From positions 1,984,136 through 2,048,135 of the forward strand of contig JBJBDC010000001.1 of assembly GCA_047285535.1 (NCBI GenBank): a stretch of 64,000 nt of DNA, read 5' to 3'. The DNA comes from Synechococcus sp. (GTDB lineage: Bacteria > Cyanobacteriota > Cyanobacteriia > PCC-6307 > Cyanobiaceae). Numbering within the stretch: the stretch's first letter is position 1; the number at the start of each line of letters is the position of its first letter. Made by a program: the position numbers and the translations under genes. This document shows, in pieces, positions 27,199 through 48,373 of this stretch. The notes under the pieces were generated by a model that had not been told where the DNA came from, ran no database searches, and saw only the letters and a list, made by a program, of their open reading frames with translations.

Positions 27199-27270
27199 CC
27201 AGCCGCTAAGGACAGTTGAAGGAGCGGAAACCTCAAGCCCGTGAATGAAGCGAATCTTCTTAAATTCAAG

Positions 27271-27365
27271 GTGTGAGGAGTGTAATCGCCTCTTCAGGGT
27301 CGAAACTAGGAAAGACTCCTGAACGCCTTGATGATCAGCCTTGCCTTTGGCAGGGCTCTTTTTTT
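27271..27365 (+). ncRNA. yfr2: Yfr2-family small RNA (probable)
   Basis: 5' GTGTGAGGAGTG (complement of the Yfr1 motif), hairpin TTCAGGGTC-GAAACTAGGAAA-GACTCCTGAA, terminator AGCCTTGCC-ttt-GGCAGGGCT-T7, TAAATT just upstream; family recognised from memory. Confidence 0.75.
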
Positions 27366-27389
27366 GCCTTAGACACCACATCAATTGAC

Positions 27390-28484: not shown

Positions 28485-28605
28485 CAGAAGGAGACGAGGC
28501 CGCGTGTCGATCCAATCCATGGGACAAATCGTCGCGTTTACCTCGGCAGGACTTATGCAACATGCTCAACTGAGTCGAGCTGCTACAACCTGCTGTCTCA
28601 GGCCG
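28485..28605 (-). promoter_or_regulatory. Ribosomal protein L10 leader (autoregulatory RNA)
   Basis: Minus strand GAGACAGCAGG...TAA.TCCTGCCGAGG...CCTCG upstream of rplJ; boundaries approximate. Confidence 0.7.
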
Positions 28606-28658
28606 GGCGCGTGCCCGTGAGCTGGCAATAGCCAGCCCATAAATTTACATCACTGTCT

Positions 28659-29366: not shown

Positions 29367-29442
29367 GACAGGTATGGGGTTCAGGCGACCCTGAGGTCTC
29401 CCCCGAAATCAGTGAATGGAACAAACAACGAACGCAGAGCGT

Positions 29443-29868
29443 TCAGTCGCTAACGGAAACACCCATATTGCGGGCGGTCCCTTCGATGATGCGCATCGCC
29501 GACTCAACACTGGTGCAGTTGAGGTCGGGAAGCTTCGTTTTGGCGATCTCCTCAAGCTGGGAGCGGTTGATGGAGCCAACACTGCCCTTGGCTGACTCAC
29601 CGGAACCTTTTTGAATTCCAGCAGCCTTGGTGATCAGCACCGAAGCGGGAGGCGTTTTGGTGATGAAGGTGAAACTACGGTCTTCAAAAACCGAAATTTC
29701 CACCGGAATCACAAATCCGGCCTTGTCCTGGGTGCGAGCGTTGTACTCCTTGCAGAACGCCATGATGTTGACCCCGTGCTGACCGAGGGCAGGACCCACC
29801 GGTGGTGCGGGGTTGGCTTTGCCGGCCTGCAGGGCCAGCTTGATCACAGCTACGACTTTCTTGGCCAT
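29443..29868 (-). CDS. rplK: 50S ribosomal protein L11
   Basis: [22 protein letters not shown]. Confidence 0.98.
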
Positions 29869-29977
29869 CGGCAAGCGGAGTTGAACATCTGCGGATCATC
29901 GAACCCTTGGGTCCGATGCGGCGAAATGGAAAACCACCTCGAGGGCCGCCCTCCGCAGGGAGACGGCCGCCGCTTCA

Positions 29978-30646
29978 TTAATTCTGTTTGCTGATCTGAG
30001 AAAACTCAAGTTCTACTGGTGTTTCACGGCCAAAGATCGACAACAACGCTTTGAGTTTGCTTCGTTCCCCAGACACCTCGATGACCTCGCCTTGGAAATC
30101 TTTAAAAGGACCTGCTGTGACGAGAATTTGATCCCCCTCGGCAAGATCCACTTTCACGACAGTCTTCTTCTCGGCCGCCCGCTTAAAGATCCGGTCCACC
30201 TCAGAGCGACTCAGCGGTCTGGGCTTGATGTGGCCTCTTGCCTTACCAGTGGCTCGTCGATCTTCGGCACCAACAAAATTGATGACATTTGGAGTACTTC
30301 TCACGGCCATCATCGTGTCCTCATCCAGGACCATCCTGACAAGCACATAACCAGGGAACACCTTCTCCTCTGTGGATTGACGACTTCCGTCTTTCTTGAC
30401 TTTCACGGCCGGAGTCTCTGGAATCTCAATCTCAAGGATGCGATTGCTCACCCCAAGCGTGACGGCACGCTGTTCAAGCGTGGCTTTGACTTTTTTCTCG
30501 CAGCTTGAGGCCACCTGCACCGCATACCAACGAGCGATGGATGTGCGAGCTGGGATCGACTCGAGCGTGCCCTCCTCTCCCTCATTAGGAGCTGGAAGAT
30601 CCAGCACCTCTTGACTCTCCTGCTGGGTTATATCGAGGTCAGACAC
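29978..30646 (-). CDS. nusG: Transcription termination/antitermination factor NusG
   Basis: WYAVQV, FPGYVLV, KOW GPFKDFQG, IFGRETPVEL. Confidence 0.97.
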   Translation of the reverse strand: MSDLDITQQESQEVLDLPAPNEGEEGTLESIPARTSIARWYAVQVASSCEKKVKATLEQRAVTLGVSNRILEIEIPETPAVKVKKDGSRQSTEEKVFPGYVLVRMVLDEDTMMAVRSTPNVINFVGAEDRRATGKARGHIKPRPLSRSEVDRIFKRAAEKKTVVKVDLAEGDQILVTAGPFKDFQGEVIEVSGERSKLKALLSIFGRETPVELEFSQISKQN

Positions 30647-30697
30647 GGATGCGGACGAAAAATGGGGACGAATGTGAGCTGCTGAGGGAACAACAGA

Positions 30698-30937
30698 TCA
30701 ACGGAACACCTGTGAGGCAGCCCAGCCATAAAAACGACTGAGAGCAGAAATGGCTGCTGCCGAGAGGCTCACCATCAAGATCACAGCCACTGATTCACTG
30801 AAGAGCTGCTGCCGGCTAGGCCAGACCACCAGTTTGAGCTCTTCAAAGGTGGCCACTAAAAAACCACCCCTCCGGCCTGTTGCAGCCGGTTGTTGTGGGG
30901 AAGCTGTTTCGGTGTCCTCAGAAGTGGGGCTGGTCAC
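30698..30937 (-). CDS. secE: Preprotein translocase subunit SecE
   Basis: EELKLVVWPSR plus one TM helix, upstream of nusG. Confidence 0.92.
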   Translation of the reverse strand: MTSPTSEDTETASPQQPAATGRRGGFLVATFEELKLVVWPSRQQLFSESVAVILMVSLSAAAISALSRFYGWAASQVFR

Positions 30938-31016
30938 GAATGTTGCGATGCCGGAACTGACGCCGGTGCCAAAAGCACATGACGACAATGAATCATCCTA
31001 CTTGACGCTTATCAGC

Positions 31017-33863
31017 TCAGCTCTCCGCTTCAAATCGAAAGGGTTCATTCGAACTCTCACCGGAGTGCACACGAATCGCCTGAGCCCCCTTGAACCGTTC
31101 TTCCAGCATTTCTGTCGCCAGCGGGTTCTCTACGTGGCGACGCAAGACCCGTCGCAAGGGTCTGGCGCCATATTCCGGCTCAAAACCAAGAGTCGCCAGG
31201 TCATGAGCCACCTCATCATCGATACGCAGCTCGAGACCCTGTTCCGCCAGGAGACGGGTCAGATCGGCGAGCTGCAAACGCACAATCCGCTCCAAATCAT
31301 GCACTCCAAGCGGACGGAAGCGAATGACTTCATCAATGCGGTTCAAGAATTCAGGCCTGAAATGATGGGCAAGCGCATCGTCAACGACGGAATCGAGCGC
31401 CTGCGCGACCTCCGCGTCATCCCCCGATTGGGCTTGCCGTGACGAATCAAGAATGGCCCGACTAGCCAAGTTGCTGGTCATGACCACCACGGTGTGGCGA
31501 AAGTCCACGGTGCGACCTTGGGAATCCGTGAGCCGACCATCGTCGAGAACTTGCAGCAGCACGTTGAACACATCGGGATGTGCTTTCTCAACTTCATCAA
31601 GTAGCAACAACGCATAGGGACGACGCCGAACAGCCTCTGTGAGCTGTCCCCCTTCCTCGTAGCCCACATAACCGGGAGGAGCCCCAAGCAAACGCGCCAC
31701 CGCATTCCGCTCCATGAACTCACTCATATCGAGACGTACGAGTGCCTCTTCCTCATCAAACAAGAGGGCACCAAGCGCTTTAGCCAGCTCCGTCTTGCCC
31801 ACTCCTGTGGGTCCTAAAAACAAAAAGGAGCCCACTGGACGACGAGGATCTTTCATGCCGGCACGGGCACGACGAATCGCAGCCGCTACAGCCTGGACAG
31901 CCTCTGGCTGGCCTATGACCCGCTCTTCGAGACGCTGCTCAAGCTCCAGCAGCTTCTGACGCTCAGCCGCCAGGAGCCGCTGTATCGGAATCCCAGTCCA
32001 GCGAGCCACAACATCGGCGATATCAGCGGCTTCCACCTGTTCTCTCAACAAGGCAGAGCCGTCCTCCTGTGCCTCATTCAGCAACTGTTCGAGATCAGCT
32101 CGGCGTTGCTGAACACGATGCAACTGGTCGAATTGAAGCCGTGCAGCCTCCTCCAAATTTCCGTCGCGTTCTGCTTCGGCGATGGCATGACGAAGGTCTT
32201 CATCTTCCTGAAGCAGCTGACGCAACTCCTCCAGCTGTTCTCGTTCGGCCTGCCAACGCTCTCGAAGCTGACTTAATCGCGACGAGGCCTCGAGACGATT
32301 GCGCTGGAGCTGGACCCTTTCACCTTCAGGGGATTGCTCAGCGGCTAGAACCGCCAACTCCACCCGGCGCAGATCAGCTTCCGCATCCTCTACCACCTGG
32401 GGCTTGGAGGTCACATCCATTTTCAACTGGGCCGCTGCCTCATCGATCAAATCAATGGCCTTATCCGGCAAACAACGATCACTGATGTAGCGATCCGCCA
32501 GACGTGCCGCCGCCATCACCGCCTCATCGGTAATGGTCACCCCGTGATGCAACTCATAACGCTCCTTCAATCCACGCAGGATGTCCACACTGAGCTCAAT
32601 CGAAGGTTCCTGAATCGACACTTTCTGAAAGCGACGGTTCAAGGCCGGATCCTTCTCAACGGTACGGCGATAGTCCTCTGGCGTTGTCGCCGCAATGCAA
32701 CGCAACTCCCCACGCGCTAAGGCTGGTTTCAGCAGGCTGGCCGCATCAGCGCTGGAACGGTCACTATTCACCACGGTGTGCAGTTCATCAATAAACAGCA
32801 CAACAGCGGCCTCTGGATCACTCACCTCATCGAGCACCGCTCGAAGACGTTCCTCAAACTGACCTCGAAACTTCGCTCCAGCAATCAAGGCACCGCCATC
32901 AAGAGCGACTAGACGCAAGCCTTGAAGTGATTCCGGCACCTCGCCAGCAACGATCCTCTGAGCCAGCAGCTCTGCCAGAGCAGTCTTGCCCACGCCAGGG
33001 GCACCAATCAACACAGGATTGTTCTTTCCGCGCCTCGACAGCACCTTGATCAGGGTGCGAATTTCCCCATCCCTGCCGATCACTGGATCGAGAAGCCCGG
33101 CGGCGGCGGCGGCGGTTAGGTCTCGACCGTAACTCTCAAGTGCAGTCGGCTCGCTCAGCGGCTCGAGGGGCAGGTCACCAGCATGGATCGCCGGCTGGGT
33201 TGATGCAGTCGGCTGCGCAACAGTGGTTGTCTGCAATGGCGGCGGCGGCGGCTGAACAGAAGGTGACTGCACAGCAGGAACAGAGGCTGCAGATTGATGG
33301 TTGGCAGAACGTGAGGAGTTGTCTTGCCTTCCCTGGGATTGGGAGCGTGGCCTGGGAGAAAGAGACGGCACCCTTTCTGACGACGCTCGATCCGGCGCAC
33401 GGGTCAGTTCCGCTTCAAGGCGGTCGGCAGGCAATCCAAATTGCGCAAATAAATCAGCCCCAATCCGAGGATCTCGCCCCATCGCAATCAGCAGATGGGA
33501 GACATCGATCAATCTGGACCCCCAGAGAGAGCGCACCCGATCCGCCTCCTCAAGCAGGGATTCGAGGTCTTCCCCTACGAATAAGTCCTCACCTCGAGCC
33601 ATGGGCTGCTCAGCCAGAAAGCCCTCGAGCCGATCGAGCAGCTGGTCGATCGGCAGAGGCAAGGCCTGAATGAAGCGCCGATAGCGTTGATCGCTAAAGA
33701 GCACCTGAAGCAGATGCTCCACGTCAAGATCTGCATGACGCCAGCGACGGGCCACATCCTGCCCCGAAAGCACAAGCTCCCAAGCATCGTCACTGAAGCG
33801 ATCTGGCTCTGAAGTAAGACTGACTGGAAGCTCAGGACCGGGGCGAGAGGTGGAAGTCGTCAT
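31017..33863 (-). CDS. clpB: ClpB-family AAA+ chaperone
   Basis: Clp N domain, GAPGVGKT and GPTGVGKT, coiled-coil M domain, [18 protein letters not shown]. Confidence 0.93.
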
Positions 33864-34279
33864 TGTGTGGAAGCTTGTTGAACCGTGTCTGAGCTGAAAG
33901 AGCGCTGAATCAGTTCCACCTTGTAGCCATCTGGATCTTCGACGAAAGCAATCACGGTGTTGCCGTGTTTCATCGGACCAGGCTCACGAACAACCCGCCC
34001 ACCTTTGGCTGCAATCGCAGCACACGCCGCATGGATGTCGTCAAGACCAAGAGCGATGTGGCCATAGCCATCACCGAGAGTGTATTGGTGTGTATCCCAG
34101 TTGTGAGTTAATTCAAGAACCGTGTTCTCACGTTCATCTCCAAATCCCACAAAGGCAAGCGTGAAGCGACCGGATGGATAGTCCTTTCGTCGCAACAACT
34201 GCATTCCCAAGACCTCAGTGTAGAAGCGAATTGATCGCTCCAAATCACCCACTCTGAGCATGGTGTGAAGCATGCGCAT
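33860..34279 (-). CDS. gloA: Lactoylglutathione lyase (glyoxalase I)
   Basis: [32 protein letters not shown]. Confidence 0.95.
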
Positions 34280-34350
34280 GTTGCTGGTTCCGGCCGTTCT
34301 TTCAACATGGTGCCAAAACCGATGGAGTCGCGGCAGGGGGCGTTCCATAG

Positions 34351-35670
<1,320 letters not shown>

Positions 35671-35689
35671 ACTCAAAATTTGATTCATC

Positions 35690-36349
35690 ATGAGATCAAG
35701 ATTCCAAGGAATGGCGATCATGCAACCACTGCTGTGGCTGATCCCCTTGGCCCTGCCCTCAACCGCTTGGGCCTCCACCGTGGTGTCTGAAGAGGTCCAT
35801 GAAAAATGCCTCAAGGCAGCTGATTACCTAGGGTGTGTAGAAGCCCAAACAGATGGAATCTCTCCACTAACAAAACCAAATAACGTTGATCAATTCGGAC
35901 TGCCAACACCAGCAGGAGCCATAGCTCACACCCGAAGAGATGGAACAATCAGCTATTTCTTCCCTGATTCTGTAGTTGCAATCAAGAACAAAAATAAATA
36001 CGGTCGCTACCTGTCATGGAGATACATTTATCACTACAACGACCCCGGGACACCTGGCTTCTGGAAACCTGGAACGCAAATTTGTACAGGCTCGGGAACC
36101 CTGAGACGATGTTTCCAAACACCATCTGTGTTTGTCAGAGGGCGTCCAGCGGGGCCACGCAGCACAAGCTGGAGAGTTGATGGAGACTGCGTGGATTACA
36201 CAGCCAAATGGGAGAAAGATGGAAGGCCTTGGAAATCATTAAATGGAGGCCGCAGTTTCGAATCTGAAAAGCTGGAAGAAGCCAGAGAAATCCTGCAAAG
36301 CCATTGTCCAAAAATTGATCAGCTAGCTAAATCACCACGGGCAATCTAA
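35690..36349 (+). CDS. Hypothetical exported protein
   Basis: 219-aa ORF, signal peptide, CLKAADYLGCV motif, six Cys. Confidence 0.65.
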   Translation: MRSRFQGMAIMQPLLWLIPLALPSTAWASTVVSEEVHEKCLKAADYLGCVEAQTDGISPLTKPNNVDQFGLPTPAGAIAHTRRDGTISYFFPDSVVAIKNKNKYGRYLSWRYIYHYNDPGTPGFWKPGTQICTGSGTLRRCFQTPSVFVRGRPAGPRSTSWRVDGDCVDYTAKWEKDGRPWKSLNGGRSFESEKLEEAREILQSHCPKIDQLAKSPRAI

Positions 36350-36407
36350 TTTTTATCGCAGAACACCTGACCTGTAGCAATCAGGAATAGTCCCTAAAAA
36401 AGAAACG

Positions 36408-38093
36408 TCACTGACGATCTGTTCCCGACAAATTCTCAAGACGTCCATCCCGACGAAGTTTCCCTTGAAGCTTCAGCCAACCCATCCCTACGGGAACAGC
36501 AGCTCCTAGCGGAAGCAAGGCCCAAAGGGGCCTGGAGCTGGCACCCATCAAGGCTGCTGCAACTGCAAGCCCACCTAGCAACACCGACTGTCCGACTGAA
36601 TGCTGAGCCGTCACCATTCTGCGGAACTGCCGATCTGATTCACCCATACGGATCTGCAGTTGCAGATCGCCTTGCTCCAGTCGCTCCAGGCTTTCATCCA
36701 GCCTGCGAGGAATGCCCACGGCTCTTGAACTCAGGGCACCAACCTGACGACCCAATTCATTGAAAAGATCATTCGAGCCAGATCCACTGGAAGTCATGAG
36801 CGGTAGCAGATAGGGCTTTGCAATCGCCACAAGGCTAAAGCCAGGATCAAGGCTTTTGCCGACCCCTTCAAAAGTGGACAGCGCACGCATCACGAAGATC
36901 AGCTCAACTGGCAAGCGAAATGGCTGTCCATACACCAGCTCGTACAGATCAGCCGATAATTTGTCGATCACTGAGCTGCTGAACGGCGGAGTGAGCGCTT
37001 CGTTCAGCATCAAACGGACCAAGCGGCGCACCGGCCCAACATCAACCTCAGTAGCGATGACTCCAGCGGCTTGCATCTCTTCAACCAGAGCCGAAGCATC
37101 ACGCGCTGCAGCAGCTCTCACCATCCCTCCCAGCCGCCTGCGTAGACGCTCCGACAGCTGACCCATCATCCCGAAATCGTAATAAATGAGAGAACCATCA
37201 AGAGCAACCGCCAAATTTCCTGGGTGAGGATCCGCATGAAAAAAGCCAAAGCGCACAAGTTGCTGCAGATAGCTGGCAGAACCGATTTCTGCCACGGACG
37301 TTGGATCAATCCCTGCCTCTTCCAAAGCCGCGCGATCATTGATCTTGATCCCTGGCAAGTAGTCGAGACAGAGCACACGCCTAGTGCTCAGCTCCCAGAT
37401 CACACCAGGGACACGAATATTTGGATCATCCAAAAACTGCTGACGGAACCGGGCAGCGTGCTGAGCCTCAAGGCGAAAATCAAGCTCCCTCAGCAACACT
37501 CTTCTGCACTCCTGCGCCATGGCAACCCAGTCGCGCCCCCGCCCCCATTGAGGATGACGCTGAAGCACAGATGCCACCTGCTGCATCACTTCTAGATCCA
37601 GCCGGAACAGACTCTCCAACCCAGGACGCTGAATCTTCAACACCACTTGGCGTCCACTGCGAAGGCTCGCCCGATGCACCTGGGCCAGCGATGCGGCCGC
37701 CATGGGCTTCTCATCCAAATCAATAATCTCAGCGCAACGCGCTCCAAGTTCCTCTTCGAGGGCTAACTGAGCGCGATCAAATGAAAACGAAGGAACACGA
37801 TCCTGCAGTTCTGCTAGTTCAGAGACCCAACCAATAGGCAGAACATCAGGCCGAGCTGAAAGCAATTGGCCGAGCTTGATAAACGCAGGCCCGAGCTGCA
37901 GGAGCTCCTGCGTCAACCAACGGGCACGCACCTTTTGCCTGGCTTCGCGACGCTCCGTCGTTGGGCCTCCTGGATAGCTGAAGGCTCTGGCATCCCACCA
38001 CAACAATGCAAGCAAAGTCAGAACAGCACGCCAAATGCGAAGGCCCCGAAATGCTTTACGCACAAGGCCAATCATTCGCCTCAACAGCCTCAC
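36408..38093 (-). CDS. AarF/ABC1/UbiB-family atypical kinase
   Basis: LGPAFIKLGQLLS, AASLAQVH, FFHADPHPGN, YDFGM. Confidence 0.93.
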   Translation of the reverse strand: MRLLRRMIGLVRKAFRGLRIWRAVLTLLALLWWDARAFSYPGGPTTERREARQKVRARWLTQELLQLGPAFIKLGQLLSARPDVLPIGWVSELAELQDRVPSFSFDRAQLALEEELGARCAEIIDLDEKPMAAASLAQVHRASLRSGRQVVLKIQRPGLESLFRLDLEVMQQVASVLQRHPQWGRGRDWVAMAQECRRVLLRELDFRLEAQHAARFRQQFLDDPNIRVPGVIWELSTRRVLCLDYLPGIKINDRAALEEAGIDPTSVAEIGSASYLQQLVRFGFFHADPHPGNLAVALDGSLIYYDFGMMGQLSERLRRRLGGMVRAAAARDASALVEEMQAAGVIATEVDVGPVRRLVRLMLNEALTPPFSSSVIDKLSADLYELVYGQPFRLPVELIFVMRALSTFEGVGKSLDPGFSLVAIAKPYLLPLMTSSGSGSNDLFNELGRQVGALSSRAVGIPRRLDESLERLEQGDLQLQIRMGESDRQFRRMVTAQHSVGQSVLLGGLAVAAALMGASSRPLWALLPLGAAVPVGMGWLKLQGKLRRDGRLENLSGTDRQ

Positions 38094-38407
38094 GACCGCT
38101 CCTCCAAGCGCATGCCAAGGTCTGCAACCCTGGCTCGCAACTGATCAATTTTGGTCTGCAGGCTCTCATCATCGAAGGATGACTGGGGTGCAGCCTCTTC
38201 GTCATCACCACGTGTATCTCCTCCTCGCTCAAGCCTCTCTGCCTCAGCCTTCACTTCCTCCTGAAACAGATCCCATTCCTGGCGGACACGTTCAGGAGCA
38301 TCCTGGATTAACACGGCTATTCCGGCCGCGGCATCAGCCACGCCGTGACCCATCCGAGCAAGCACACGATGCATCGCCGCTCTAAGCAGAGCATCTCGGG
38401 AGGTCAT
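38090..38407 (-). CDS. Conserved cyanobacterial hypothetical coiled-coil protein
   Basis: QEWDLFQEEV...IDQLRARVA; translationally coupled to the kinase. Confidence 0.7.
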   Translation of the reverse strand: MTSRDALLRAAMHRVLARMGHGVADAAAGIAVLIQDAPERVRQEWDLFQEEVKAEAERLERGGDTRGDDEEAAPQSSFDDESLQTKIDQLRARVADLGMRLEERS

Positions 38408-38466
38408 GGCCAAACGTCTCAACCTTGGAACTGTGGCAGATTTAGCGCTCGATCAGCGACGTTCGA

Positions 38467-39162
38467 TCAGGGAGCGGGAGGCTCTTCAATCGGAGTGGTG
38501 AAGAACTCGGTCTGATCCAGCATGGGCTCAACGACTACAGGATCAATCAAGACGGGTTCAACGATCCCTGGTGCAGGATCCTGAGCCGCCGCCGTGGGCT
38601 GGGACTCCGGATCCTGGAAGGGAAATGGTGACGGTTCACTCAGGGTTGGCTGTGAATCAGGCAATTCAGAGGGGGCTGAGGGCTCGATCACCGGCGTTTC
38701 GTTCAGTGCTGGGATGTCTTCCGCGCGAGGAGGCGTACTCACCGCCGCCTGCTGACTGCGCTGACGCTCGATGGCCGCAGCAGCGATGCGCTCCGCCTGT
38801 TCCTTGGCTTTGCGTTGCTCAAGCTCTTTCGCAAGCTTGGCCTCTTTCACCTCATTGGCCTGTTTCAACTCTTTCGCATCTTTCAGTTCTTTCGCTGCCA
38901 CATCAGCCGCCAGAGCATGGGTCTCTCCATGCCGAAGCCGTAAAGCCTCAAGGCTGTCGCCTGGAAATGAACGGAAGGCAAAGACCTGACTCTCAGGTTG
39001 TTGCCAACCCGCTCGAATCAGAACAATGCGCTGGGTAATGCCGTAACCGAGCGCGAAGCCAGCACCAGCAACCAAGGGGCCAACCCAAAAGCGAGGACGA
39101 ACTCGCCGCTTTGAATTCAACGAAGAAGGGTTGGTCTCAGCGGGCACAGTCATGGCCTCCAT
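38467..39162 (-). CDS. Hypothetical membrane-anchored protein with Pro-rich C-terminus
   Basis: FWVGPLVAGAGFALGYGITQR TM segment, coiled coil, Pro/Glu tail. Confidence 0.7.
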   Translation of the reverse strand: MEAMTVPAETNPSSLNSKRRVRPRFWVGPLVAGAGFALGYGITQRIVLIRAGWQQPESQVFAFRSFPGDSLEALRLRHGETHALAADVAAKELKDAKELKQANEVKEAKLAKELEQRKAKEQAERIAAAAIERQRSQQAAVSTPPRAEDIPALNETPVIEPSAPSELPDSQPTLSEPSPFPFQDPESQPTAAAQDPAPGIVEPVLIDPVVVEPMLDQTEFFTTPIEEPPAP

Positions 39163-39194
39163 GGCTTCACCATCCTGGCAGCGATGTCCAGACC

Positions 39195-40448
39195 TCAAGT
39201 TGTGTAATCAGCGTTAATACGTACGTATTGATCTGAAAGGTCGCACCCCCAAGCGACGCCATGGCCTGGACCATCGCCAAGACAAAGACGAATGTGAACG
39301 GTGTCATCAACCAGATAACGACCGCAAGCACATTCGCTGAGGTACGCAGACACTGCAGCGCGATCAAATGGCACCGGCTCACCCAATGCCATCAACTGAT
39401 GAGGTCCAATCCAAAGAGCCACAGCATCCGAGGCAAAAGCCACCCCTGCTCGACCTGCAGCCGCCACAATTCTGCCCCAATTGGGATCGCGCCCATGCAC
39501 GGCTGTTTTCACCAGTGACGAACCAATAATTGTGCGAGCGATCTTGAGCGCCTCCATTTCTGAGCCTGTTCCCTCCACCTCCACCTCAATCAGGCAAGTG
39601 GCTCCCTCTCCATCCCTGGCGATAGCTCGGGCCAGGTGCTGTGCAACAAGGGTGACCCCTTGCTCGAGGAGCTCAAACTGATCGAGCGGCAAAGCCTTCC
39701 CCGCAGCGAAGGCCAGGAAGGTGTCATTCGTGCTGGTGTCGCCATCCACGGAGATGACATTGAAGGAACGCTGAACCACACGCTGGACCATGTCCTGCCA
39801 GGCCTCTGCTGGCATCCCTACATCACAGGTCAGGTAACCGAGCATGGTGGCCATATCGGGATGAATCATTCCCGACCCTTTGGCCATTCCGCCGATCCGC
39901 ACCCGGCGGCCTCCAAGGTGGGCCTCGAGAGCAATCTGCTTGTTGACGAGATCCGTGGTGAGGATGGCCTCTGCGGCCGCTCCGCCTCCCTGATCCGACA
40001 GTGAAGACACCAGAGGATCCACCGCTTCCAAGAGTTTGTCGATAACAATCGGCACTCCGATCACCCCGGTGGAACAGATCAATACCTGCTGCGCTGACAC
40101 GCCCAGGCGACTGGCCACAGCCTGCGTTACTTGAAGACTGTCGATCAGGCCCCGATCACCCGTGCAGGCATTGGCCTGGCCGGAATTCGTCACCACAGCC
40201 CGTGCATGGCCAGCACCAAGCTTCAACCGCTCGGCACAGAGATCAACACAGGCAGCTCGTACCACTGAAGTGGTGAAGGTCCCGGCACAGACCGAGCCCT
40301 CCGGCGCCAGCAGTAACGAAAGATCGGGCTTCCCGGAGGTCTTAAGCCCGACAGTGAGACCAGAGGCCTTAAATCCATCTGGTGCCGTGATTCCTCCCTG
40401 CACGGGAAGCCAGCTGGGGAAAGAGGATCCGCTGTTGGCCGCAATCAC
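39195..40448 (-). CDS. argJ: Bifunctional glutamate N-acetyltransferase ArgJ
   Basis: NSGQANACTG, KGSGMIHPDMATML, DGDTSTND, DGEGA, YVRINADYTT; start uncertain. Confidence 0.96.
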   Translation of the reverse strand: MIAANSGSSFPSWLPVQGGITAPDGFKASGLTVGLKTSGKPDLSLLLAPEGSVCAGTFTTSVVRAACVDLCAERLKLGAGHARAVVTNSGQANACTGDRGLIDSLQVTQAVASRLGVSAQQVLICSTGVIGVPIVIDKLLEAVDPLVSSLSDQGGGAAAEAILTTDLVNKQIALEAHLGGRRVRIGGMAKGSGMIHPDMATMLGYLTCDVGMPAEAWQDMVQRVVQRSFNVISVDGDTSTNDTFLAFAAGKALPLDQFELLEQGVTLVAQHLARAIARDGEGATCLIEVEVEGTGSEMEALKIARTIIGSSLVKTAVHGRDPNWGRIVAAAGRAGVAFASDAVALWIGPHQLMALGEPVPFDRAAVSAYLSECACGRYLVDDTVHIRLCLGDGPGHGVAWGCDLSDQYVRINADYTT

Positions 40449-40488
40449 GGGCGCACGGGAGACACTGGAACCATCCTGACGCCGTGCC

Positions 40489-41100
40489 ATGCCCCGCCAA
40501 CGCCGGATCGGCCTCACTGGCGGCATCGCCAGTGGCAAAAGCAGCGTGGGCGATTGGCTGGAGAAGAGGGGCCTTCCTGTGCTCGATGCCGATCAATTCG
40601 CCCGAGAAGCTCTAGCCCCAGGAAGTGAAGGCGCTCAGAGAGTTCTCAACCGTTACGGCGACAAGGTCCGGCTCCATGCATCCAAACCAGAAGACGCTTG
40701 CATCGACCGCGCTGTCCTGGGTCGGATCGTGTTCAGCGATGAGAGTGAGCGGCGATGGCTGGAACAGCTGGTGCACCCAATGGTCAGGAGAAGGTTCGAG
40801 CAGGAGCTGGCCTCCCTAGCTGAGGCACCGGTGGTAGTGCTGATGATCCCGCTGCTCTTTGAAGCGGGCCTGGAGGCGATTTGCAACGAGGTTTGGGTGG
40901 TGCACTGCTCATTGGCTCAACAGAAACGACGGCTCATGACCAGGAACCATCTAGGAGCCAAAGAAGCCGAGCAGCGGATTCATGCTCAATGGTGTCTCAA
41001 ACAAAAATGCCAACGTGCAGACCAGGTCATCAATAACACGGGCACTCCTGGCGCCTGGCAGCAACAGGTTGCATCACTGATTGACATCAGAAACCTCTAA
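40489..41100 (+). CDS. coaE: Dephospho-CoA kinase
   Basis: IGLTGGIASGKS, LDAD, HP.V, IPLLFE. Confidence 0.96.
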   Translation: MPRQRRIGLTGGIASGKSSVGDWLEKRGLPVLDADQFAREALAPGSEGAQRVLNRYGDKVRLHASKPEDACIDRAVLGRIVFSDESERRWLEQLVHPMVRRRFEQELASLAEAPVVVLMIPLLFEAGLEAICNEVWVVHCSLAQQKRRLMTRNHLGAKEAEQRIHAQWCLKQKCQRADQVINNTGTPGAWQQQVASLIDIRNL

Positions 41101-41232
41101 TCAACCACCAATTTCGACATCTCTGAACACACGCAATTATAGGCCTTTCGTCAATCAAGACGTCGGGAATTATCAATACTTGAACCAAATCCACCAGGAA
41201 ACGCTCGCATGGACAACCAATGATCAAAAGAC

Positions 41233-41262
41233 AAAATAAAAGCTGGCCGATATGGCCAGCTT
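41233..41262 (-). terminator. Intrinsic terminator of the tandem-repeat gene
   Basis: AAGCTGGCC-gatat-GGCCAGCTT with A-rich left flank (U tract on minus strand). Confidence 0.65.
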
Positions 41263-41284
41263 CAGCGAAATTCAATGATCGCTC

Positions 41285-42127
41285 TCACTTAGCCCAAACG
41301 CCATTAAACCGTACACCTTTTGAAGAATTAAACCCTTCAACATATGCCGGCTGAAGATTGTTAGCAATAATGCCATCAAAAACTTGCTGATACTGACCGC
41401 TTGGGACACCATGCCTGGCCTGCCAGCTTGAATTGACCCCAGGCCTTTTAGTGAAAATAGCAACATAGCGATCTTGCCCACCTTTACGATAACCACTCAC
41501 GACCTTCACTCGATAGCCCTTCTTTGAAGCCTTGTTGAATAGCTGTTGATACTTCACAGAAGTCATATCATGCCTCGTAAAAGATCCTGATACACCTTTC
41601 TGGAAAATCGCAGCAAAACGTGGCAAGCTTCCTACAGTGAAAGCACTTACATGCACAGGCCTAAATCCTTGCTTAGCATAAACTTTTTTTTGATTCAGAT
41701 ATTGAGACTCTGTTAATCCATGGCGAGCAATATAGGCAGGCCCCGAGGACTTTTCCCAAATTGCAGCGTAATATGGCTGATTTCCGACTGAATAACCATT
41801 CACGTAGGTGAGACGATAGCCCTTTTGAGTTAGATCATTGAATACGGATTGATACTGGTTAGGCGTTAACCCATGACGAGCCTGGAAGGGTTTGCAATTA
41901 TCTTTACTCCAAACACCTGTATAACGAGCCCTATTCCCTTGCTGGTAGCCAGAAACCGACTTCAGGCAGTATCCACTATTCACAAAGTCATCAAAAGACT
42001 GTTGATACTGCACACTTGACAAGCCATGCCTTGCAACCCATTGGCCCGCAGAAGATGGCAGAGCCGAAGAACAGAGAAGGCCCGTGGCAATGAAGAAACC
42101 CAGTGCGGTAGTTTTTTGAACAGTCAT
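41285..42127 (-). CDS. Secreted protein of five ~50-aa bacterial tandem repeats (BTRD1 / polyglycine-hydrolase-like repeat)
   Basis: Signal peptide then 5 x (W/F/Y)xARHG(L/M)xxxxYQxxF...GY.....GY......Y..(I/V)W. Confidence 0.78.
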   Translation of the reverse strand: MTVQKTTALGFFIATGLLCSSALPSSAGQWVARHGLSSVQYQQSFDDFVNSGYCLKSVSGYQQGNRARYTGVWSKDNCKPFQARHGLTPNQYQSVFNDLTQKGYRLTYVNGYSVGNQPYYAAIWEKSSGPAYIARHGLTESQYLNQKKVYAKQGFRPVHVSAFTVGSLPRFAAIFQKGVSGSFTRHDMTSVKYQQLFNKASKKGYRVKVVSGYRKGGQDRYVAIFTKRPGVNSSWQARHGVPSGQYQQVFDGIIANNLQPAYVEGFNSSKGVRFNGVWAK

Positions 42128-42275
42128 CTTGCTACCCCTAGATGAGCAATCGTTCAGATTCAAAGATGTAGAAGTCATCGTTTTTTGATGTGAAGAGCAC
42201 GTCAGAAAAAGATTCCTGACATCCACACCATTGCCTTTCTAAATGAAGGTCCTGGTGATTGAACTCAATGCGATC

Positions 42276-42291
42276 TGTGATCTTTCACACA
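42276..42291. promoter_or_regulatory. CRP-like box, 1 mismatch (TGTGA-tctttc-ACACA)
   Basis: Intergenic, upstream of the 41285..42127 gene. Confidence 0.45.
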
Positions 42292-42805
42292 AATTGCGAT
42301 CACTAAACGCTCAACAGGCCAGAGCTTCGAACAACCTAAGTGTCGCGTCAGCCATGTCTAATGCGGAGATCTGATTGAGATTTCGCAACCGTCCGGCATG
42401 CAATTGCGCTACCACCAAAGGGCACAAGACCTTTGCAATGAAAAAGAAAAGACAGAACACCAAGACATAAGTTGCTGCCCTTAGCCAAGCTAGTTGAGCA
42501 ATAATCAATCGAATCAACCAGCCCAATGGTTTAAACCAGCTTGAAAGATTCCTTACAGGATGGTCCACCCGCCGCAAAGAGAGAGATGACGGCCATCCAA
42601 ACCAAGGCATTGATTGATTCCTCTGTTGTGACTGCGAAACCAGAACGAAACGATTGACCATGACTAATCGGAATGCCATTTGATCGCATGATCAAAAAAC
42701 AATCAAAAAGGCATCACGTTTGATCAGGCCTGACCAAGCTTCACCACCCAAGGTGAGTTCAATCCTCCTCCTGGCAAAACTGTCAAGACTCCAGGACAAG
42801 GACTG

Positions 42806-43385
42806 CAACGGCGCATCGGACTAACCGGTGGGATCTCTAGTGGCAAAAACAGCGTGGGGCGCCACCTCTACGAACGAGGAATCGCAGTACTCGACGCCGA
42901 TCTCTATGCCCATCAAGCCCTAGCCCCCGGTACCAATGGAGCAGATTCTGTGATCTAGCGCTACTCAACACGGGATCAGAACACAGCCGACGCTCATAGC
43001 GATACAACAACCAGCCCAGGCTGCATCAACCAAAAGGCTCTGGGAAGTTTCGTGTTCAATGAACAGCGCGAGCGTCTTTGGCTCGAGAGACTTATCCATC
43101 CGCAAATGCGTGCAAACTTTGAGTAAGCACTCACAAAGCACGTCAATTCAGAAACTGTTGCCTTGACGATTCGCTTCTGTTCAAAGCCGGACTCAGGGAC
43201 CTTTGCACCGCGAACTGGGTGGTCTATGCAGCCCAGCTCCAGCAACGGGACAAACTGGATGAAGCTGCCACAAGGGCTCGCATCCAGTCCCAATGGCACT
43301 GAAGCAAAAATGTCAAATCACAGACTTCTTAGTTAACAACTGAGAAGGATCTGGCTGCTGGAACAAGCAACTTAAAACGTTGGCC
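42806..43385 (+). pseudogene. coaE: Degraded second copy of coaE
   Basis: Translates QRRIGLTGGISSGKNSVG...VLDAD...ALAPG; stops at 42956 and 43124; frameshifted LLFKAGL..LC..WVV, RIQSQW, LKQKCQ...VNN. Confidence 0.88.
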
Positions 43386-43683
43386 AAAACCAAAAAAGTA
43401 ATAAGTAAAGGCTTTTTTCAAAAGAACACATGCACAGATCAGACAAGTCGATCAAGACGAACCACGTGACTCTTCACTCCACAAACAACTCACAAACCCT
43501 CAAGAACACAAACAGAAACACCAACATTCCGCATGGCCTCTCCCAAGCCAGGGACAATCTCACAACCAAGATTAATCCAAGTCACAACATGGCAACGCAC
43601 CCAAGGGAAAACTAAGTGCACTGGACAAGCCACCTTGGCAAACCAGAGCTCAACCATTGAAATCCACTCACTCTGGAAACCTC

Positions 43684-45522
43684 ATGAACAACCAACAGAA
43701 CCTCAAAACCGCCCGCACACTGATCGCAGGCGGTCTTCTCGCCAGCAGCTTGATCGCTGGAGTCAACCCAGCACATGCTGACGTCTCACAAAGCAACATC
43801 CAATCACTGAATCCAAGACAACAGAAATACAACCGATGTCCAAAGGATGCTGATTGCTACATCCTCAGCACACGCATCATCTCAGGCCAAGTCGCTGATC
43901 CAAGCGAGCTAAGCGGTGACGAAAACTACATTCTTCCAATCTGGTCAATCATTGACGGCATGGGCGTTGATGTGCACCCCCTTGCCACTGACTCCGACGA
44001 CTTCTTCAGAGTCAATATCGCCAAAAAAACCATTGGCAACATGGGAAGGCGGTTTAACCAACGCAGAACAAGCAACACAATCAAGCTGAAAACTGGACAG
44101 CCAGGAGCTTACAAACTACACCTCAATAAAGACTTTGTAGTCCCAATGTCACGCGACAAGTGGACGACCGATGGACTCATTTTTTCCGTCAACATGATGG
44201 AGCATGACAACAGCAAACGCTCCGACATTGACAGGGAATACCTTAAAAGTGCTAGACGAGTTCAAAATGGGCTACTCCGCAACGCCCAAAACGTACGGGT
44301 TGGGATGAGATCACCAACGTATTATTCAGATGCCGCAAAAGCCACTTACAAGTTCACAAAAGAAGCGGCACCCATGGCAGCCAAGGCCTACGCCGCGTAT
44401 CAAACCGGTGGAGCCGCCTCTGCCGCAGGAACTGTTGACATCAGCTCCCTACCAGGTCTATTCAAAGGCTTATGGAACGGATTGAAAAGGCTCGACAGAG
44501 ATGATGTAGGCCATCAAAAAACTGTCTACATCCCCTTCAATTCACTCCGCAACGGCGTCGAGAAAGTAAAGAAAATCTGCGGCAAAACAGATCCAGGAGC
44601 GGCCAATACAGGGAAATTTTGCATTAAAATTGGTGTCAAATTAGATCTTCATTCTCGTAAAAGTACGGCCTCCGCATTCGACAAAAAGATTGATTCTGGC
44701 ACTGGTGGAAGCAACACGGGGACCAATCCCAATCAAAACACCAAATACAAACTTGCCGGAACTTGGAAAGCCAATGACGGCGGCACCTACAAAATTACGC
44801 AATCTGGAAACCGCATTTACTGGAAAGGGAAAGGTGGCAACTTCATCAACAAATTCTCAGGTGTCATCTCCGGTCGAACCATCACCGGCAAATGGCGAGA
44901 CACTGCTTCGAGCCAAACCCAAAATCGCGGGACGCTAAAGCTGCGCATCGATAACTCAAAAAAACTGACACGCATCGGCAGAACTGGGCCTTTCACTGGC
45001 TCTGTCTGGAAGCGAGTCACAGGCAGCACAGGCAGCACAGGCAGCACGAGTCAACTCAAAGAAGATTGCCTAGCCTTCAATCCCAGAGCACTTTCAATTC
45101 GTAACCAAGGCGGGTCAGGAGGATGGACCATCACTCAAGGCAGCCGTCTTCTCTTCGCATTTGGAGATAAAAAAGCTAACGCCAAAGAAGCGCTGAAACT
45201 AATCAAGGGTTACGGCTTCAACCAATCCTGCTTTGTTGGCCGTCCTGGCCCCTCCATGAGATATCTCAAAAAAGGGACATCAGTACCCAATATTTCCAAT
45301 TCAGCGATCAAGCCGCGAGATTGCATCAACATTAACAACCGAAACTTAAGTCTTAGAAAAAGAGGAGCGAATTGGGCACTCACTGACGGGCGCTCAATCC
45401 CGCTGTCTTCTCGAAGCAAAGCTGAAATGGTTCAAGCCAAGGGAATCATCAAAAAATACGGCCTCTCCAAGCAATGCTTTGTCGGCCGCCCAAACCCACC
45501 CTTCGCTTTTTGGCTCCGCTGA
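43684..45522 (+). CDS. Secreted multidomain basic protein of unknown function
   Basis: Signal peptide (AHA|DVS), central beta-rich domain, two C-terminal DC...KxYG...CFVGRP repeats; ORF open from 43657. Confidence 0.8.
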   Translation: MNNQQNLKTARTLIAGGLLASSLIAGVNPAHADVSQSNIQSLNPRQQKYNRCPKDADCYILSTRIISGQVADPSELSGDENYILPIWSIIDGMGVDVHPLATDSDDFFRVNIAKKTIGNMGRRFNQRRTSNTIKLKTGQPGAYKLHLNKDFVVPMSRDKWTTDGLIFSVNMMEHDNSKRSDIDREYLKSARRVQNGLLRNAQNVRVGMRSPTYYSDAAKATYKFTKEAAPMAAKAYAAYQTGGAASAAGTVDISSLPGLFKGLWNGLKRLDRDDVGHQKTVYIPFNSLRNGVEKVKKICGKTDPGAANTGKFCIKIGVKLDLHSRKSTASAFDKKIDSGTGGSNTGTNPNQNTKYKLAGTWKANDGGTYKITQSGNRIYWKGKGGNFINKFSGVISGRTITGKWRDTASSQTQNRGTLKLRIDNSKKLTRIGRTGPFTGSVWKRVTGSTGSTGSTSQLKEDCLAFNPRALSIRNQGGSGGWTITQGSRLLFAFGDKKANAKEALKLIKGYGFNQSCFVGRPGPSMRYLKKGTSVPNISNSAIKPRDCININNRNLSLRKRGANWALTDGRSIPLSSRSKAEMVQAKGIIKKYGLSKQCFVGRPNPPFAFWLR

Positions 45523-45556
45523 TCTGGCAGGCAACACAACACCACTCATCAACACT

Positions 45557-45581
45557 GCCTCCGTCACAACGGGGGCTTTTT
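45557..45581 (+). terminator. Intrinsic terminator (repeated at 46243 and 46929)
   Basis: GCCTCCGT-caca-ACGGGGGC-TTTTT. Confidence 0.75.
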
Positions 45582-45641
45582 CTTGTCTGATCCCCACGCT
45601 GCCTTGCTCAAAGCCATTGCACTGGAATCACTCTCAACACC

Positions 45642-45657
45642 TGTGACCAATCTCACA
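45642..45657. promoter_or_regulatory. Perfect CRP-consensus box TGTGA-ccaatc-TCACA (also 46328 and 47014)
   Basis: Exact TGTGA-N6-TCACA between terminator and gene in each repeat unit. Confidence 0.65.
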
Positions 45658-45755
45658 AACCCCTGAGACACACCTCATCAAGTCCACTGCCGATTGAGGC
45701 GATCTTGAGTTCATCGGCGGCGCTCACCGCCCTCCACTCCTCACACTCAAATACC

Positions 45756-46208
45756 ATGAATCGCTCTCTATCCCTTCTCTCCGCATTCGCCCTCTCGTCT
45801 GCTGCTCTGCTCTCTTTTCAACCTCAAGAGGCGAAGGCGATGAACATCGCCTTCGATTGCTTTGAACGGAGCAGCGAAAAACTCATCGCACGCAGTGCGG
45901 TCGATATGACCAGCACCGCCATCAGCTGCCTCCCCGTTCCAGGCACAACCCTCACCGATGCTTCCAGCATCGATTCAGGCGACGGAGTCATTCTCGCTAA
46001 TCACACCACCACAGAAGAAGATACCTACTTTGATGAGGACGTTGCCCACGAAAATACCTATGAAGACGATGGAGGTGCCTATGAAGACGATGGAGGTGCC
46101 TATGAAGACGATGGAGATGAACGCTCCACAGGCTCAAAACTGGGGTCAGCCGTCGGAGAACACCTCGGCAAACTCTTAGGACAGGGGATTAGTGATCTCT
46201 TCCGCTGA
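45756..46208 (+). CDS. Small secreted acidic protein, copy 1 of 3
   Basis: Signal peptide (MNRSLSLL...EAKA), two-Cys domain, YEDDGGA repeats, Gly-zipper-like C-terminus; ORF open from 45705. Confidence 0.78.
   Translation: MNRSLSLLSAFALSSAALLSFQPQEAKAMNIAFDCFERSSEKLIARSAVDMTSTAISCLPVPGTTLTDASSIDSGDGVILANHTTTEEDTYFDEDVAHENTYEDDGGAYEDDGGAYEDDGDERSTGSKLGSAVGEHLGKLLGQGISDLFR
46057..46116 (+). repeat. 21-bp in-frame tandem repeat CCTATGAAGACGATGGAGGTG, ~2.9 copies (YEDDGGA), in each unit
   Basis: Direct reading. Confidence 0.9.
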
Positions 46209-46441
46209 TCTGGCAGGCAACACAACACCACTCATCAACACTGCCTCCGTCACAACGGGGGCTTTTTCTTGTCTGATCCCCACGCTGCCTTGCTCAAAGC
46301 CATTGCACTGGAATCACTCTCAACACCTGTGACCAATCTCACAAACCCCTGAGACACACCTCATCAAGTCCACTGCCGATTGAGGCGATCTTGAGTTCAT
46401 CGGCGGCGCTCACCGCCCTCCACTCCTCACACTCAAATACC

Positions 46442-46894
46442 ATGAATCGCTCTCTATCCCTTCTCTCCGCATTCGCCCTCTCGTCTGCTGCTCTGCTCTC
46501 TTTTCAACCTCAAGAGGCGAAGGCGATGAACATCGCCTTCGATTGCTTTGAACGGAGCAGCGAAAAACTCATCGCACGCAGTGCGGTCGATATGACCAGC
46601 ACCGCCATCAGCTGCCTCCCCGTTCCAGGCACAACCCTCACCGATGCTTCCAGCATCGATTCAGGCGACGGAGTCATTCTCGCTAATCACACCACCACAG
46701 AAGAAGATACCTACTTTGATGAGGACGTTGCCCACGAAAATACCTATGAAGACGATGGAGGTGCCTATGAAGACGATGGAGGTGCCTATGAAGACGATGG
46801 AGATGAACGCTCCACAGGCTCAAAACTGGGGTCAGCCGTCGGAGAACACCTCGGCAAACTCTTAGGACAGGGGATTAGTGATCTCTTCCGCTGA
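46442..46894 (+). CDS. Small secreted acidic protein, copy 2 of 3
   Basis: Identical to copy 1. Confidence 0.78.
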   Translation: MNRSLSLLSAFALSSAALLSFQPQEAKAMNIAFDCFERSSEKLIARSAVDMTSTAISCLPVPGTTLTDASSIDSGDGVILANHTTTEEDTYFDEDVAHENTYEDDGGAYEDDGGAYEDDGDERSTGSKLGSAVGEHLGKLLGQGISDLFR

Positions 46895-47127
46895 TCTGGC
46901 AGGCAACACAACACCACTCATCAACACTGCCTCCGTCACAACGGGGGCTTTTTCTTGTCTGATCCCCACGCTGCCTTGCTCAAAGCCATTGCACTGGAAT
47001 CACTCTCAACACCTGTGACCAATCTCACAAACCCCTGAGACACACCTCATCAAGTCCACTGCCGATTGAGGCGATCTTGAGTTCATCGGCGGCGCTCACC
47101 GCCCTCCACTCCTCACACTCAAATACC

Positions 47128-47580
47128 ATGAATCGCTCTCTATCCCTTCTCTCCGCATTCGCCCTCTCGTCTGCTGCTCTGCTCTCTTTTCAACCTCAAG
47201 AGGCGAAGGCGATGAACATCGCCTTCGATTGCTTTGAACGGAGCAGCGAAAAACTCATCGCACGCAGTGCGGTCGATATGACCAGCACCGCCATCAGCTG
47301 CCTCCCCGTTCCAGGCACAACCCTCACCGATGCTTCCAGCATCGATTCAGGCGACGGAGTCATTCTCGCTAATCACACCACCACAGAAGAAGATACCTAC
47401 TTTGATGAGGACGTTGCCCACGAAAATACCTATGAAGACGATGGAGGTGCCTATGAAGACGATGGAGGTGCCTATGAAGACGATGGAGATGAACGCTCCA
47501 CAGGCTCAAAACTGGGGTCAGCCGTCGGAGAACACCTCGGCAAACTCTTAGGACAGGGGATTAGTGATCTCTTCCGCTGA
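47128..47580 (+). CDS. Small secreted acidic protein, copy 3 of 3
   Basis: Identical to copy 1. Confidence 0.78.
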   Translation: MNRSLSLLSAFALSSAALLSFQPQEAKAMNIAFDCFERSSEKLIARSAVDMTSTAISCLPVPGTTLTDASSIDSGDGVILANHTTTEEDTYFDEDVAHENTYEDDGGAYEDDGGAYEDDGDERSTGSKLGSAVGEHLGKLLGQGISDLFR

Positions 47581-47758
47581 TCCTCAAAACCCCGACACAC
47601 CCTCCGCGTAGAAGCAACACTTCCGCCCTTCTCTCCAAATCAACACAGAAAGCAGGGCCTCCACAGTGCTGAAAGAGCCAACCAACAACGGCCTCGTCGC
47701 ATAGCGACACAACACCCTTCCATCGTCTTAGGCCTTTTCAGAATAAAACTGAAGGTCG

Positions 47759-48373
47759 TTGATGATTCAAGGCATGCGCATAGTCCACCCAAGCGCTGCG
47801 GCACTAATCCTCCTAGCCAGCAGCACAGTCACATTCACGCCAAAAGTCGAAGCCAACGCCTTTCGATGCTTCGATCGCCAAACCGGCCAGCTGATCGCAG
47901 TCAGCGACAAAGACATCACCACTATCAGCGTGAGCTGTCTTCCCAACGGCGGAATCAAGACCCCTCCCCGTAGGGAAAGCGACTCAGATCCCGGAAAGTT
48001 ACCACCAAGCAGAGGTTCTACAGTCAGCGAAGACTGGGCCTATGAGGATGAGGATGATTCCGGCTCTGAGCAGTCTCTCCAGTCTCCATCGGACACAAAA
48101 GTTGATCCATTGGCTGCCCGACGGGCCATCAACTTGGCTCGCGGAACTGCCGTATCAATCAATGGTGGACTGAGTCAATACCGCCCTAGTACTTGCATGT
48201 TTGCCAGCGCCATGGGCAACCCCTGCATCACTCGCTCTGATTCACAAGGCATTGTTTTCACGATTCCCGGTGGTCCTCCAGGCTGGGAACAAAACGATGA
48301 AGAGCCAAGCGTGGTCACCGTGGTAGTTATTGCACTAGACGGCCGCTCTGTCCTGGAAGCAAGTAACAACTGA
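47759..48373 (+). CDS. Secreted hypothetical protein (two-Cys N-domain, acidic linker, conserved picocyanobacterial C-domain)
   Basis: Signal peptide; AFRCFDR...SCLP; AINLARG...NGGLSQYRP..CMF...GGPPGW...DGRSV. Confidence 0.75.
   Translation: MMIQGMRIVHPSAAALILLASSTVTFTPKVEANAFRCFDRQTGQLIAVSDKDITTISVSCLPNGGIKTPPRRESDSDPGKLPPSRGSTVSEDWAYEDEDDSGSEQSLQSPSDTKVDPLAARRAINLARGTAVSINGGLSQYRPSTCMFASAMGNPCITRSDSQGIVFTIPGGPPGWEQNDEEPSVVTVVVIALDGRSVLEASNN

Follow-up and report, generated by a model that had tools for sequence, protein, structure and literature searches.

Yfr1 and Yfr2 rank among the most abundant small RNAs (sRNAs) of cyanobacteria and among the best conserved. Yfr1 (Rfam RF01116) is a free-standing RNA of 54-69 nt in which the undecanucleotide ACUCCUCACAC stays unpaired between two stem-loops, the 3' one of which is a Rho-independent terminator. 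The main text of Lambrecht 2019 (PMC6778093) describes pairing of the Yfr2 5' motif with this same motif in Yfr1 and Yfr10, based on pull-down, an E. coli GFP reporter and RNase E protection; Yfr2 relieves repression by Yfr1 in the GFP assay, and RNase E cuts free Yfr2. Further carriers in that text are Yfr10, Syr5 and Yfr104, small non-coding RNAs that bind Yfr2, are often encoded next to yfr2 and hold the Yfr1 motif in a loop within an otherwise unconserved context. Messages are bound as well: in the CRAFD-Seq analysis of Prochlorococcus MED4 presented there, 17% of the Yfr2 pull-down peaks fall in 5' UTRs, and the action of Yfr1 and Yfr2 on messages is still described as enigmatic. In the full-text literature searched, and in the main text of PMC6778093, we found no protein-coding leader family that conserves the Yfr1 motif, the carriers given being small RNAs (Yfr1, Yfr10, Syr5, Yfr104); in the target description of that main text, no target is defined by a conserved copy of the motif and no homologue of the gene family considered here is named.

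We analyzed a stretch of 64,000 nt (hereafter, the window) from a Synechococcus genome, G000, which consists of one contig of 3.03 Mb with 50.6% G+C. A scan of the window places the Yfr1-type motif CACTCCTCACAC three times on the + strand, each copy stopping 9 nt ahead of the ATG of a small gene (Table 1). The spacing and the recurrence are as the first-pass annotation had described them, and so is the exact complementarity of the motif to the 5' end of a Yfr2-like sRNA gene 18 kb upstream of the array: the reverse complement of CACTCCTCACAC is GTGTGAGGAGTG, found at 27271-27282. Allowing one mismatch, the window holds 4 matches to CACTCCTCACAC against 0.41 expected, a number that none of 100 shuffles reached. 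The complete Yfr1 undecanucleotide is present in the first copy, at 45736-45746, where it is predicted to be unpaired. Since the leader keeps a complement of the Yfr2 5' end, the message is likely a docking site for Yfr2, and we put at slightly better than even the probability that the motif is a conserved Yfr2-pairing site laid over the ribosome landing zone. The pairing is a prediction.

Table 1. Features of the locus and of the putative partner gene (positions in the window)
Feature	Position	Strand	Remarks
Yfr2-family sRNA gene (Rfam Cyano-1, RF01701)	27267..27366	+	model match 27267-27334, 44.6 bits (gathering score 41)
Upstream 621-aa open frame	43657..45522	+	its stop region is one microhomology arm
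Perfect tandem array, 3 x 686 bp plus 10-bp microhomology TCCGCTGATC	45515..47582	+	period-686 self-identity; three units identical
Intrinsic-terminator-like hairpin with T tail, after the upstream gene	45557..45586 (hairpin 45557-45576); repeat 46243-46262	+	
CRP-like palindrome TGTGACCAATCTCACA, TGTGA-N6-TCACA	45642..45657; 46328-46343; 47014-47029	+	
Conserved box CTCATCAA, likely -10 region	45674..45681	+	kept in two leader alignments
Conserved leader box GATCTTGAGTTCAT	45701..45714	+	best-conserved part of the transcribed leader
Predicted stem-loop GGCGG-CGCTCA-CCGCC	45716..45731	+	directly upstream of the motif; minimum-free-energy folds from three assumed starts
Yfr1-type motif CACTCCTCACAC, copy 1	45735..45746	+	-21 to -10 from the ATG at 45756
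Yfr1-type motif CACTCCTCACAC, copy 2	46421..46432	+	ATG at 46442
Yfr1-type motif CACTCCTCACAC, copy 3	47107..47118	+	ATG at 47128
Coding sequence, 150-aa secreted acidic protein	45756..46208; copies 46442-46894, 47128-47580	+	translation; homologue alignments
Long-form paralogue	47774..48373	+	same N-terminal module, different C-terminal domain; leader without motif

The leader resembles Yfr1 in carrying the identical 11-mer, unpaired, directly 3' of a G/C-rich stem-loop and complementary to the 5' end of Yfr2. It differs in that only the 5' stem-loop is predicted, and the motif precedes an AUG and a 150-codon frame by 9 nt, whereas Yfr1 stands free and closes on a terminator hairpin. The likeness to Yfr10, Syr5 and Yfr104 lies in the motif itself; unlike these independent, terminated small transcripts with a looped motif, the window has the motif 3' of the stem and no terminator before the coding sequence, in an mRNA leader conserved together with a protein family. 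The predicted folds pair GGCGG (45716-45720) with CCGCC (45727-45731) and leave the motif largely open, at an opening cost of 1.5-1.9 kcal/mol. A different hairpin had been proposed in the first-pass annotation, between CTGCCGAT (45687-45694) and ATCGGCGG (45713-45720): both arms exist, but this is not the minimum-free-energy fold, and orthologues do not conserve the 5' arm, which falls at the predicted transcription start. When homologous leaders are folded one at a time, a hairpin of -2.3 kcal/mol or lower is predicted just before the motif in 36 of 41, with stems as different as GGCGG/CCGCC, GGGGA/UCCCC, GGGGGC/GCUCCC and CGGA/UCCG. RNAalifold applied to the leaders returned no consensus fold or weak ones, and no covariation statistic, because the stem shifts register between subfamilies; the conservation of the hairpin is therefore a matter of single-sequence folds.

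The decisive evidence comes from the comparison of homologues. Loci from genomes were pooled with 43 further loci from metagenome contigs, and one copy of each distinct 69-nt leader was kept; six long-form (paralogue-type) leaders, duplicates and truncated loci were left out, as were the leaders of two full-length homologues, in genomes G076 and G109, whose identity to the motif is limited to 4 and 6 nt, respectively. Of the resulting 41 leaders, 11 carry the 12-mer without mismatch, 10 with one mismatch, 5 with two, 10 with three and 5 with at least four (20 thus have two or more), while dinucleotide-shuffled leaders contained on average 0.005 perfect copies and 0.3 within one mismatch. Conservation upstream of homologues, a check proposed in the first-pass annotation, is thus borne out, and half of the set (21 of 41 leaders) lies within one mismatch, as would befit a canonical sRNA target site. 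Among the 35 leaders with no more than three mismatches, conservation is 77-100% in the block CTCCTCACAC and 34-82%, mostly 34-65%, in its flanks (six bases before and ten after the 12-mer); selecting leaders by mismatches biases the motif columns upward, and the flanks serve as internal control. The distance to the start codon is also kept, the motif ending 9-13 nt ahead of the ATG in 19 of the 21 leaders within one mismatch. To judge from these alignments, the motif is real, and a conserved 5'-UTR element with the 12-mer at its core accompanies a family of small, acidic secreted proteins of picocyanobacteria.

The element is found in varied contexts. Another genus, represented by genome G009, has three paralogues with the identical 12-mer 9 nt before the ATG and with different flanks; perfect copies are shared by two diverged protein subfamilies (AFDCFERSSEKL, AWDCFDRTSNAL) and stand behind different stems. 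Orthologues within the genus show the variants CACTCCTCACCC, CACTCCTCCACAC, CTCCTCGCACAC, CTCCCCACAC and ACTCCTCAC. Identity to the motif over at least 8 nt is seen in 10 of 15 leaders of the protein family, compared with 2 of the 26 leaders from other genes with the same promoter-leader module (described below), and both exceptions look like relatives of the family. The leader family as a whole is C/U-rich, and CCUCCAC recurs as a hairpin arm in paralogous modules, so composition and descent inflate the similarity.

The putative partner is a bona fide member of the Yfr2/Cyano-1 family, with a match to the Rfam model, the conserved 5' sequence GUGAGGAG and a GGAAACA-type loop. Its 5' end, GGTGTGAGGAGTG (27270-27282), forms the partner sequence; TTAAAT stands just upstream of the gene, whose transcription start is a prediction, and a terminator-like hairpin (27337-27357) with a T run follows. 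The gene adjoins rplL. Four other Cyano-1 copies exist in G000, and only the copy in the window reads GGUGUGAGGAGUG; the 5' ends of the others are GGGGUGAGGAGGG (two copies), AUGUGAGGAGGG and one weaker variant. The conserved leader block complements what is conserved in the 5' end of the Cyano-1 consensus, UGUGUGAGGAG. In G009, all three Yfr2 copies found carry GTGTGAGGAGTG, and one of them forms a 16-nt perfect complement of a leader.

The predicted duplex comprises 12 Watson-Crick pairs and one G-U pair over -21 to -10, within the translation initiation region in which sRNA targets lie (about -20 to +15). Duplex folding with 30 nt of Yfr2 gave inflated energies through long internal loops, shuffled leaders reaching -32.9 kcal/mol, and a scan with a 16-nt seed was used instead. 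The seed-leader duplex then has -23.8 kcal/mol and ranks about tenth among all genome positions on both strands; Yfr1, at -27.7 kcal/mol, and a few G/C-rich sites come ahead of it, so that several unrelated sites do as well or better. In the minimum-free-energy fold of Yfr2 itself, part of the 5' end is engaged in pairing, and opening it costs 6.4 kcal/mol. We also noted a second complementarity of 8 nt, between leader positions 45696-45703 (GAGGCGAT) and 27285-27292 of the Yfr2 gene in the window (ATCGCCTC); the same leader positions are predicted to pair with codons 3-5, and the feature is not kept in orthologues.

In four genomes belonging to two genera, motif-bearing genes have a Yfr2 copy at a distance of 15-19 kb (window 27267-45756; G009 C1:2341258-2361638; G374 C2:2458193-2476742; G404 C12:4513-21364), a spacing that probably reflects conserved synteny of the rplL-to-gatB region. 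Elsewhere in G000 there is a genuine Yfr1 (RF01116, 62.3 bits), and we identified three Yfr10-like genes, at C1:446549(+), 811034(-) and 1638901(-), each back to back with a Cyano-1/Yfr2 copy and each equipped with a terminator and two variants of the motif, AACUCCUCACAA in a loop and GGCUCCUCACACCC unpaired.

A family-wide pattern search at first suggested a large set of leaders and was set aside. ACTCCTCACAC-N6-12-ATG matches occur in 69 of 401 family genomes, and 28 of the 30 loci listed precede frames of 25 codons or fewer. Compared with Rfam, 14 of these loci comprise two Yfr1 genes, two reverse complements of a Cyano-1 5' end, eight sites with no sRNA hit and two at the position of Yfr10, 65-90 nt ahead of a Cyano-1 gene and on its strand.

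Leaders of homologues from 13 genomes (14 leaders) were aligned from the palindrome to the ATG. The palindrome site is present in all 14, with exact TGTGA-N6-TCACA in 8 and one to three half-site substitutions in the rest; G000 has 22 exact copies of the palindrome where 2.9 are expected. The site is thus conserved and over-represented, as would be expected of a CRP-dependent promoter, and G000 has four matches to the Crp-type helix-turn-helix (HTH) family PF13545 above cut-off. Sites of CRP-dependent promoters are centered near -41.5 or -61.5 from the transcription start, those of class II usually at -41.5. Because we assume this usual spacing, transcription is predicted to start near 45688-45692, giving a leader of roughly 66 nt. 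The resemblance to class II promoters thus consists of a near-consensus palindrome conserved upstream of the leader in a genome that encodes Crp-family HTH proteins; the difference is that the spacing to the start is here a deduction, and regulator and ligand are putative.

The motif is also present in an RNA library. A seawater metatranscriptome contig of 243 nt is 100% identical to the window over 45698-45940, motif included. Its end lies near the predicted start; the contig gives no strand or true 5' end, and DNA carry-over is possible. Coverage from a further RNA run, X2, is confined to 45380-45548, in the upstream gene, and carries no information on the leader.

Several other features of this region deserve mention. 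The best-conserved box of the transcribed leader (45701-45714) contains GUUCAU, which in many orthologues is complementary to the start codon and the next codon (AUGAAU/C) in folds of a subset of leaders; UUUAU preserves the pairing by wobble in one orthologue. GUUCAU may, on these models, be an anti-start element. Taken together, the palindrome, a TCATCA box, a GAGAT..TG.GT.CAT box, a hairpin of GGAGG/CCUCC type and the ATG form a promoter-leader module of about 120 nt (45642-45755). An nhmmer profile of this module gave 19 hits in G000, about 15 after collapsing identical duplicates, and found matches in 32 of 151 family genomes, most of them ahead of small secreted proteins or peptides with double-glycine leaders.

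The reading we favor may be stated as follows. A CRP-like promoter module (TGTGA-N6-TCACA) would produce an mRNA whose leader copies the seed and local architecture of Yfr1/Yfr10: a G/C-rich stem-loop, then single-stranded CUCCUCACAC, ending 9-13 nt before an AUG that lacks a Shine-Dalgarno sequence. The conserved 5' end of Yfr2-family RNAs (GUGUGAGGAG) would dock on this element, and the resulting helix of 12 bp (-21 to -10) would bar the 30S subunit from the start region; the predicted sign of the effect is repression. Yfr1 and Yfr10-like RNAs would compete for the same Yfr2 end, and expression would therefore track the balance of Yfr2 to Yfr1/10. Control of the gene would thus be twofold, by a CRP-like factor at the level of transcription and by this balance after it. 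The locus adds a protein-coding family that keeps the motif in its 5' UTR, with an unchanged structural context and a constant spacing to the start codon. The locus offers a compact candidate Yfr2-mRNA pair with evolutionary support, suited to the existing GFP-reporter and pull-down methods, and would connect small secreted proteins of marine picocyanobacteria, as a CRP-like regulon, with the Yfr network.

The block may also work without Yfr2, as a single-stranded landing site for an RNA-binding protein, such as ribosomal protein S1, that promotes initiation without a Shine-Dalgarno sequence, or as a binding site for a protein that may recognize the Yfr1 motif; the match to Yfr2 would then be a by-product. 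We give this about one chance in four. The leader is indeed pyrimidine-rich and has no Shine-Dalgarno sequence, related modules also have C/U-rich leaders with CCUCCAC, and in many lineages mismatched or indel-bearing variants survive. Moreover, leaders and Yfr2 copies of six genomes, each leader being compared with Yfr2 of its own and of other genomes, showed no significant co-variation (83 of 720 permutations). That the Yfr1 motif could be a protein-binding motif is a suggestion made in Voss 2007 (PMC2190773). Against this, the need for a pyrimidine tract would not fix ten bases at 77-100% while equally C/U-rich flanks drift, and other leaders of the same promoter-leader module do without the motif. 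The conserved leader block also ends where the conserved Yfr2 5' block ends, and the 16-nt complement in G009 exceeds the shared motif.

Two further explanations let the leader act in trans. Enterobacterial messages are known to serve as sRNA decoys, as when the chb transcript traps ChiX. The likeness here is a message sequence that pairs with an sRNA seed and is able to titrate it; organisms and sequences are unrelated, and a decoy role here is hypothetical. Transcripts induced from a CRP-like promoter, in a dose that tandem amplification can raise, might as a true message-borne Yfr1 mimic titrate the Yfr2 5' end and free Yfr1/Yfr10; if true, a regulon of secreted proteins would in this way be tied into the global carbon-nitrogen network of Yfr1/Yfr2 by a competing endogenous RNA in a cyanobacterium, an outcome that we consider improbable. 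A little less probable still is the general case of a leader that serves as a message-borne Yfr1/Yfr10 mimic, acting as a Yfr2 sponge or pairing with Yfr1 targets, with its dose raised by the triplication.

The architecture of the leader does match the 5' two-thirds of Yfr1, a G/C stem-loop and then the unpaired motif, and Yfr10-like carriers are, in the main text of PMC6778093, poorly conserved outside the motif. The three identical copies each have their own promoter, and relatives possess arrays of module-driven genes. On the other hand, with only 9 nt between motif and ATG no terminator fits, and no separate small transcript is evident. An Rfam search of the leader gave nothing relevant, and no Yfr1 hit, at E-values up to 10, and the genome already has Yfr1 and the three Yfr10-like genes. 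The motif is also kept in single-copy orthologues, so amplification is not part of the conserved design. A Yfr1-mimic leader, either translationally controlled by Yfr2 or acting as a Yfr2 sponge or Yfr1 mimic with its dose tripled by the amplification, had been the inference of the first-pass annotation. Its foundation holds, the motif being present, conserved upstream of homologues, predicted accessible and perfectly complementary to Yfr2; nothing favors the sponge or mimic role, or a functional triplication, over a plain cis target site.

That the motif is a functionless, neutral product of a C/U-rich leader, tripled by a recent duplication, is very improbable. Its mere occurrence is, admittedly, not beyond chance. 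The 11-mer ACTCCTCACAC has 8 sites in G000 against 3 for the reversed control: Yfr1 itself, the complement of the Yfr2 gene in the window, the three array copies, the EF-Tu reading frame, another open frame of 434 codons and one intergenic site. The latter (C1:456266-456276, + strand) is an A+T-rich stretch with no Rfam hit and no adjacent long frame. The three array copies, moreover, count as one evolutionary event, not three, because they belong to a perfect tandem array of identical units. A genome-wide count, called for in the first-pass annotation, thus does not make the motif special, and Voss 2007 (PMC2190773), where it treats the 11-mer, likewise reports it more than once per genome and not diagnostic alone; position and conservation set the motif apart and carry the case. 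Neither the excess of perfect and one-mismatch copies over shuffled leaders nor the constant spacing to the ATG is expected by chance, nor is the presence in two genera and two diverged protein subfamilies with different flanks, and such divergent flanks argue against recent transfer of one sequence among homologous leaders.

Finally, an open frame runs from TTG 45705, a start that would turn the motif into coding sequence and that the first-pass annotation had named as a threat to its reading, but this is extremely unlikely: every homologue begins at the ATG with M(N/T/S)RS and a signal peptide, and the stretches upstream show no conservation at the protein level and contain indels whose lengths are not divisible by three. 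Translation is, on these alignments, to be placed at ATG 45756.

The gene encodes a protein with a signal peptide, a conserved module FDCFxR...SAVD...SC, acidic YEDDGGA repeats and a glycine-rich tail. No Pfam family was found for it or for the long-form paralogue. Its 111 homologue clusters come mostly from marine metagenomes; where names are given, these are hypothetical proteins of marine Synechococcus, bar one labeled RanGAP. The islet sits among core genes, with argJ, coaE and a BTRD1-repeat protein on one side and a 2OG-Fe(II) oxygenase and gatB on the other.

Each 686-bp unit of the array consists of terminator, promoter, leader and coding sequence; the third terminator copy, at 46929-46948, follows from the identity of the units. 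The 10-bp microhomology is common to the stop regions of the upstream 621-aa gene and the small gene, and it stands at both borders of the array (45515-45524 and 47573-47582). This points to an origin of the first duplication in illegitimate recombination that joined the stop regions of adjacent genes. Tandem arrays of module-driven small genes are also found in relatives, with six copies at a spacing of about 870 bp in G135 (C1:2279387-2283975) and nine copies at about 500 bp in G032 (C1:463057-467178); amplification of such cassettes therefore seems common in the group.

Within the coding sequence, at the signal-peptide cleavage region, we observed a perfect 10-bp hairpin (45832-45855) followed by a U-rich stretch. 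Its arms change together in homologues, AAGGC/GCCUU going with K...F and CAGGC/GCCUG with Q...W in the protein. It may represent a conserved RNA structure or an attenuator.
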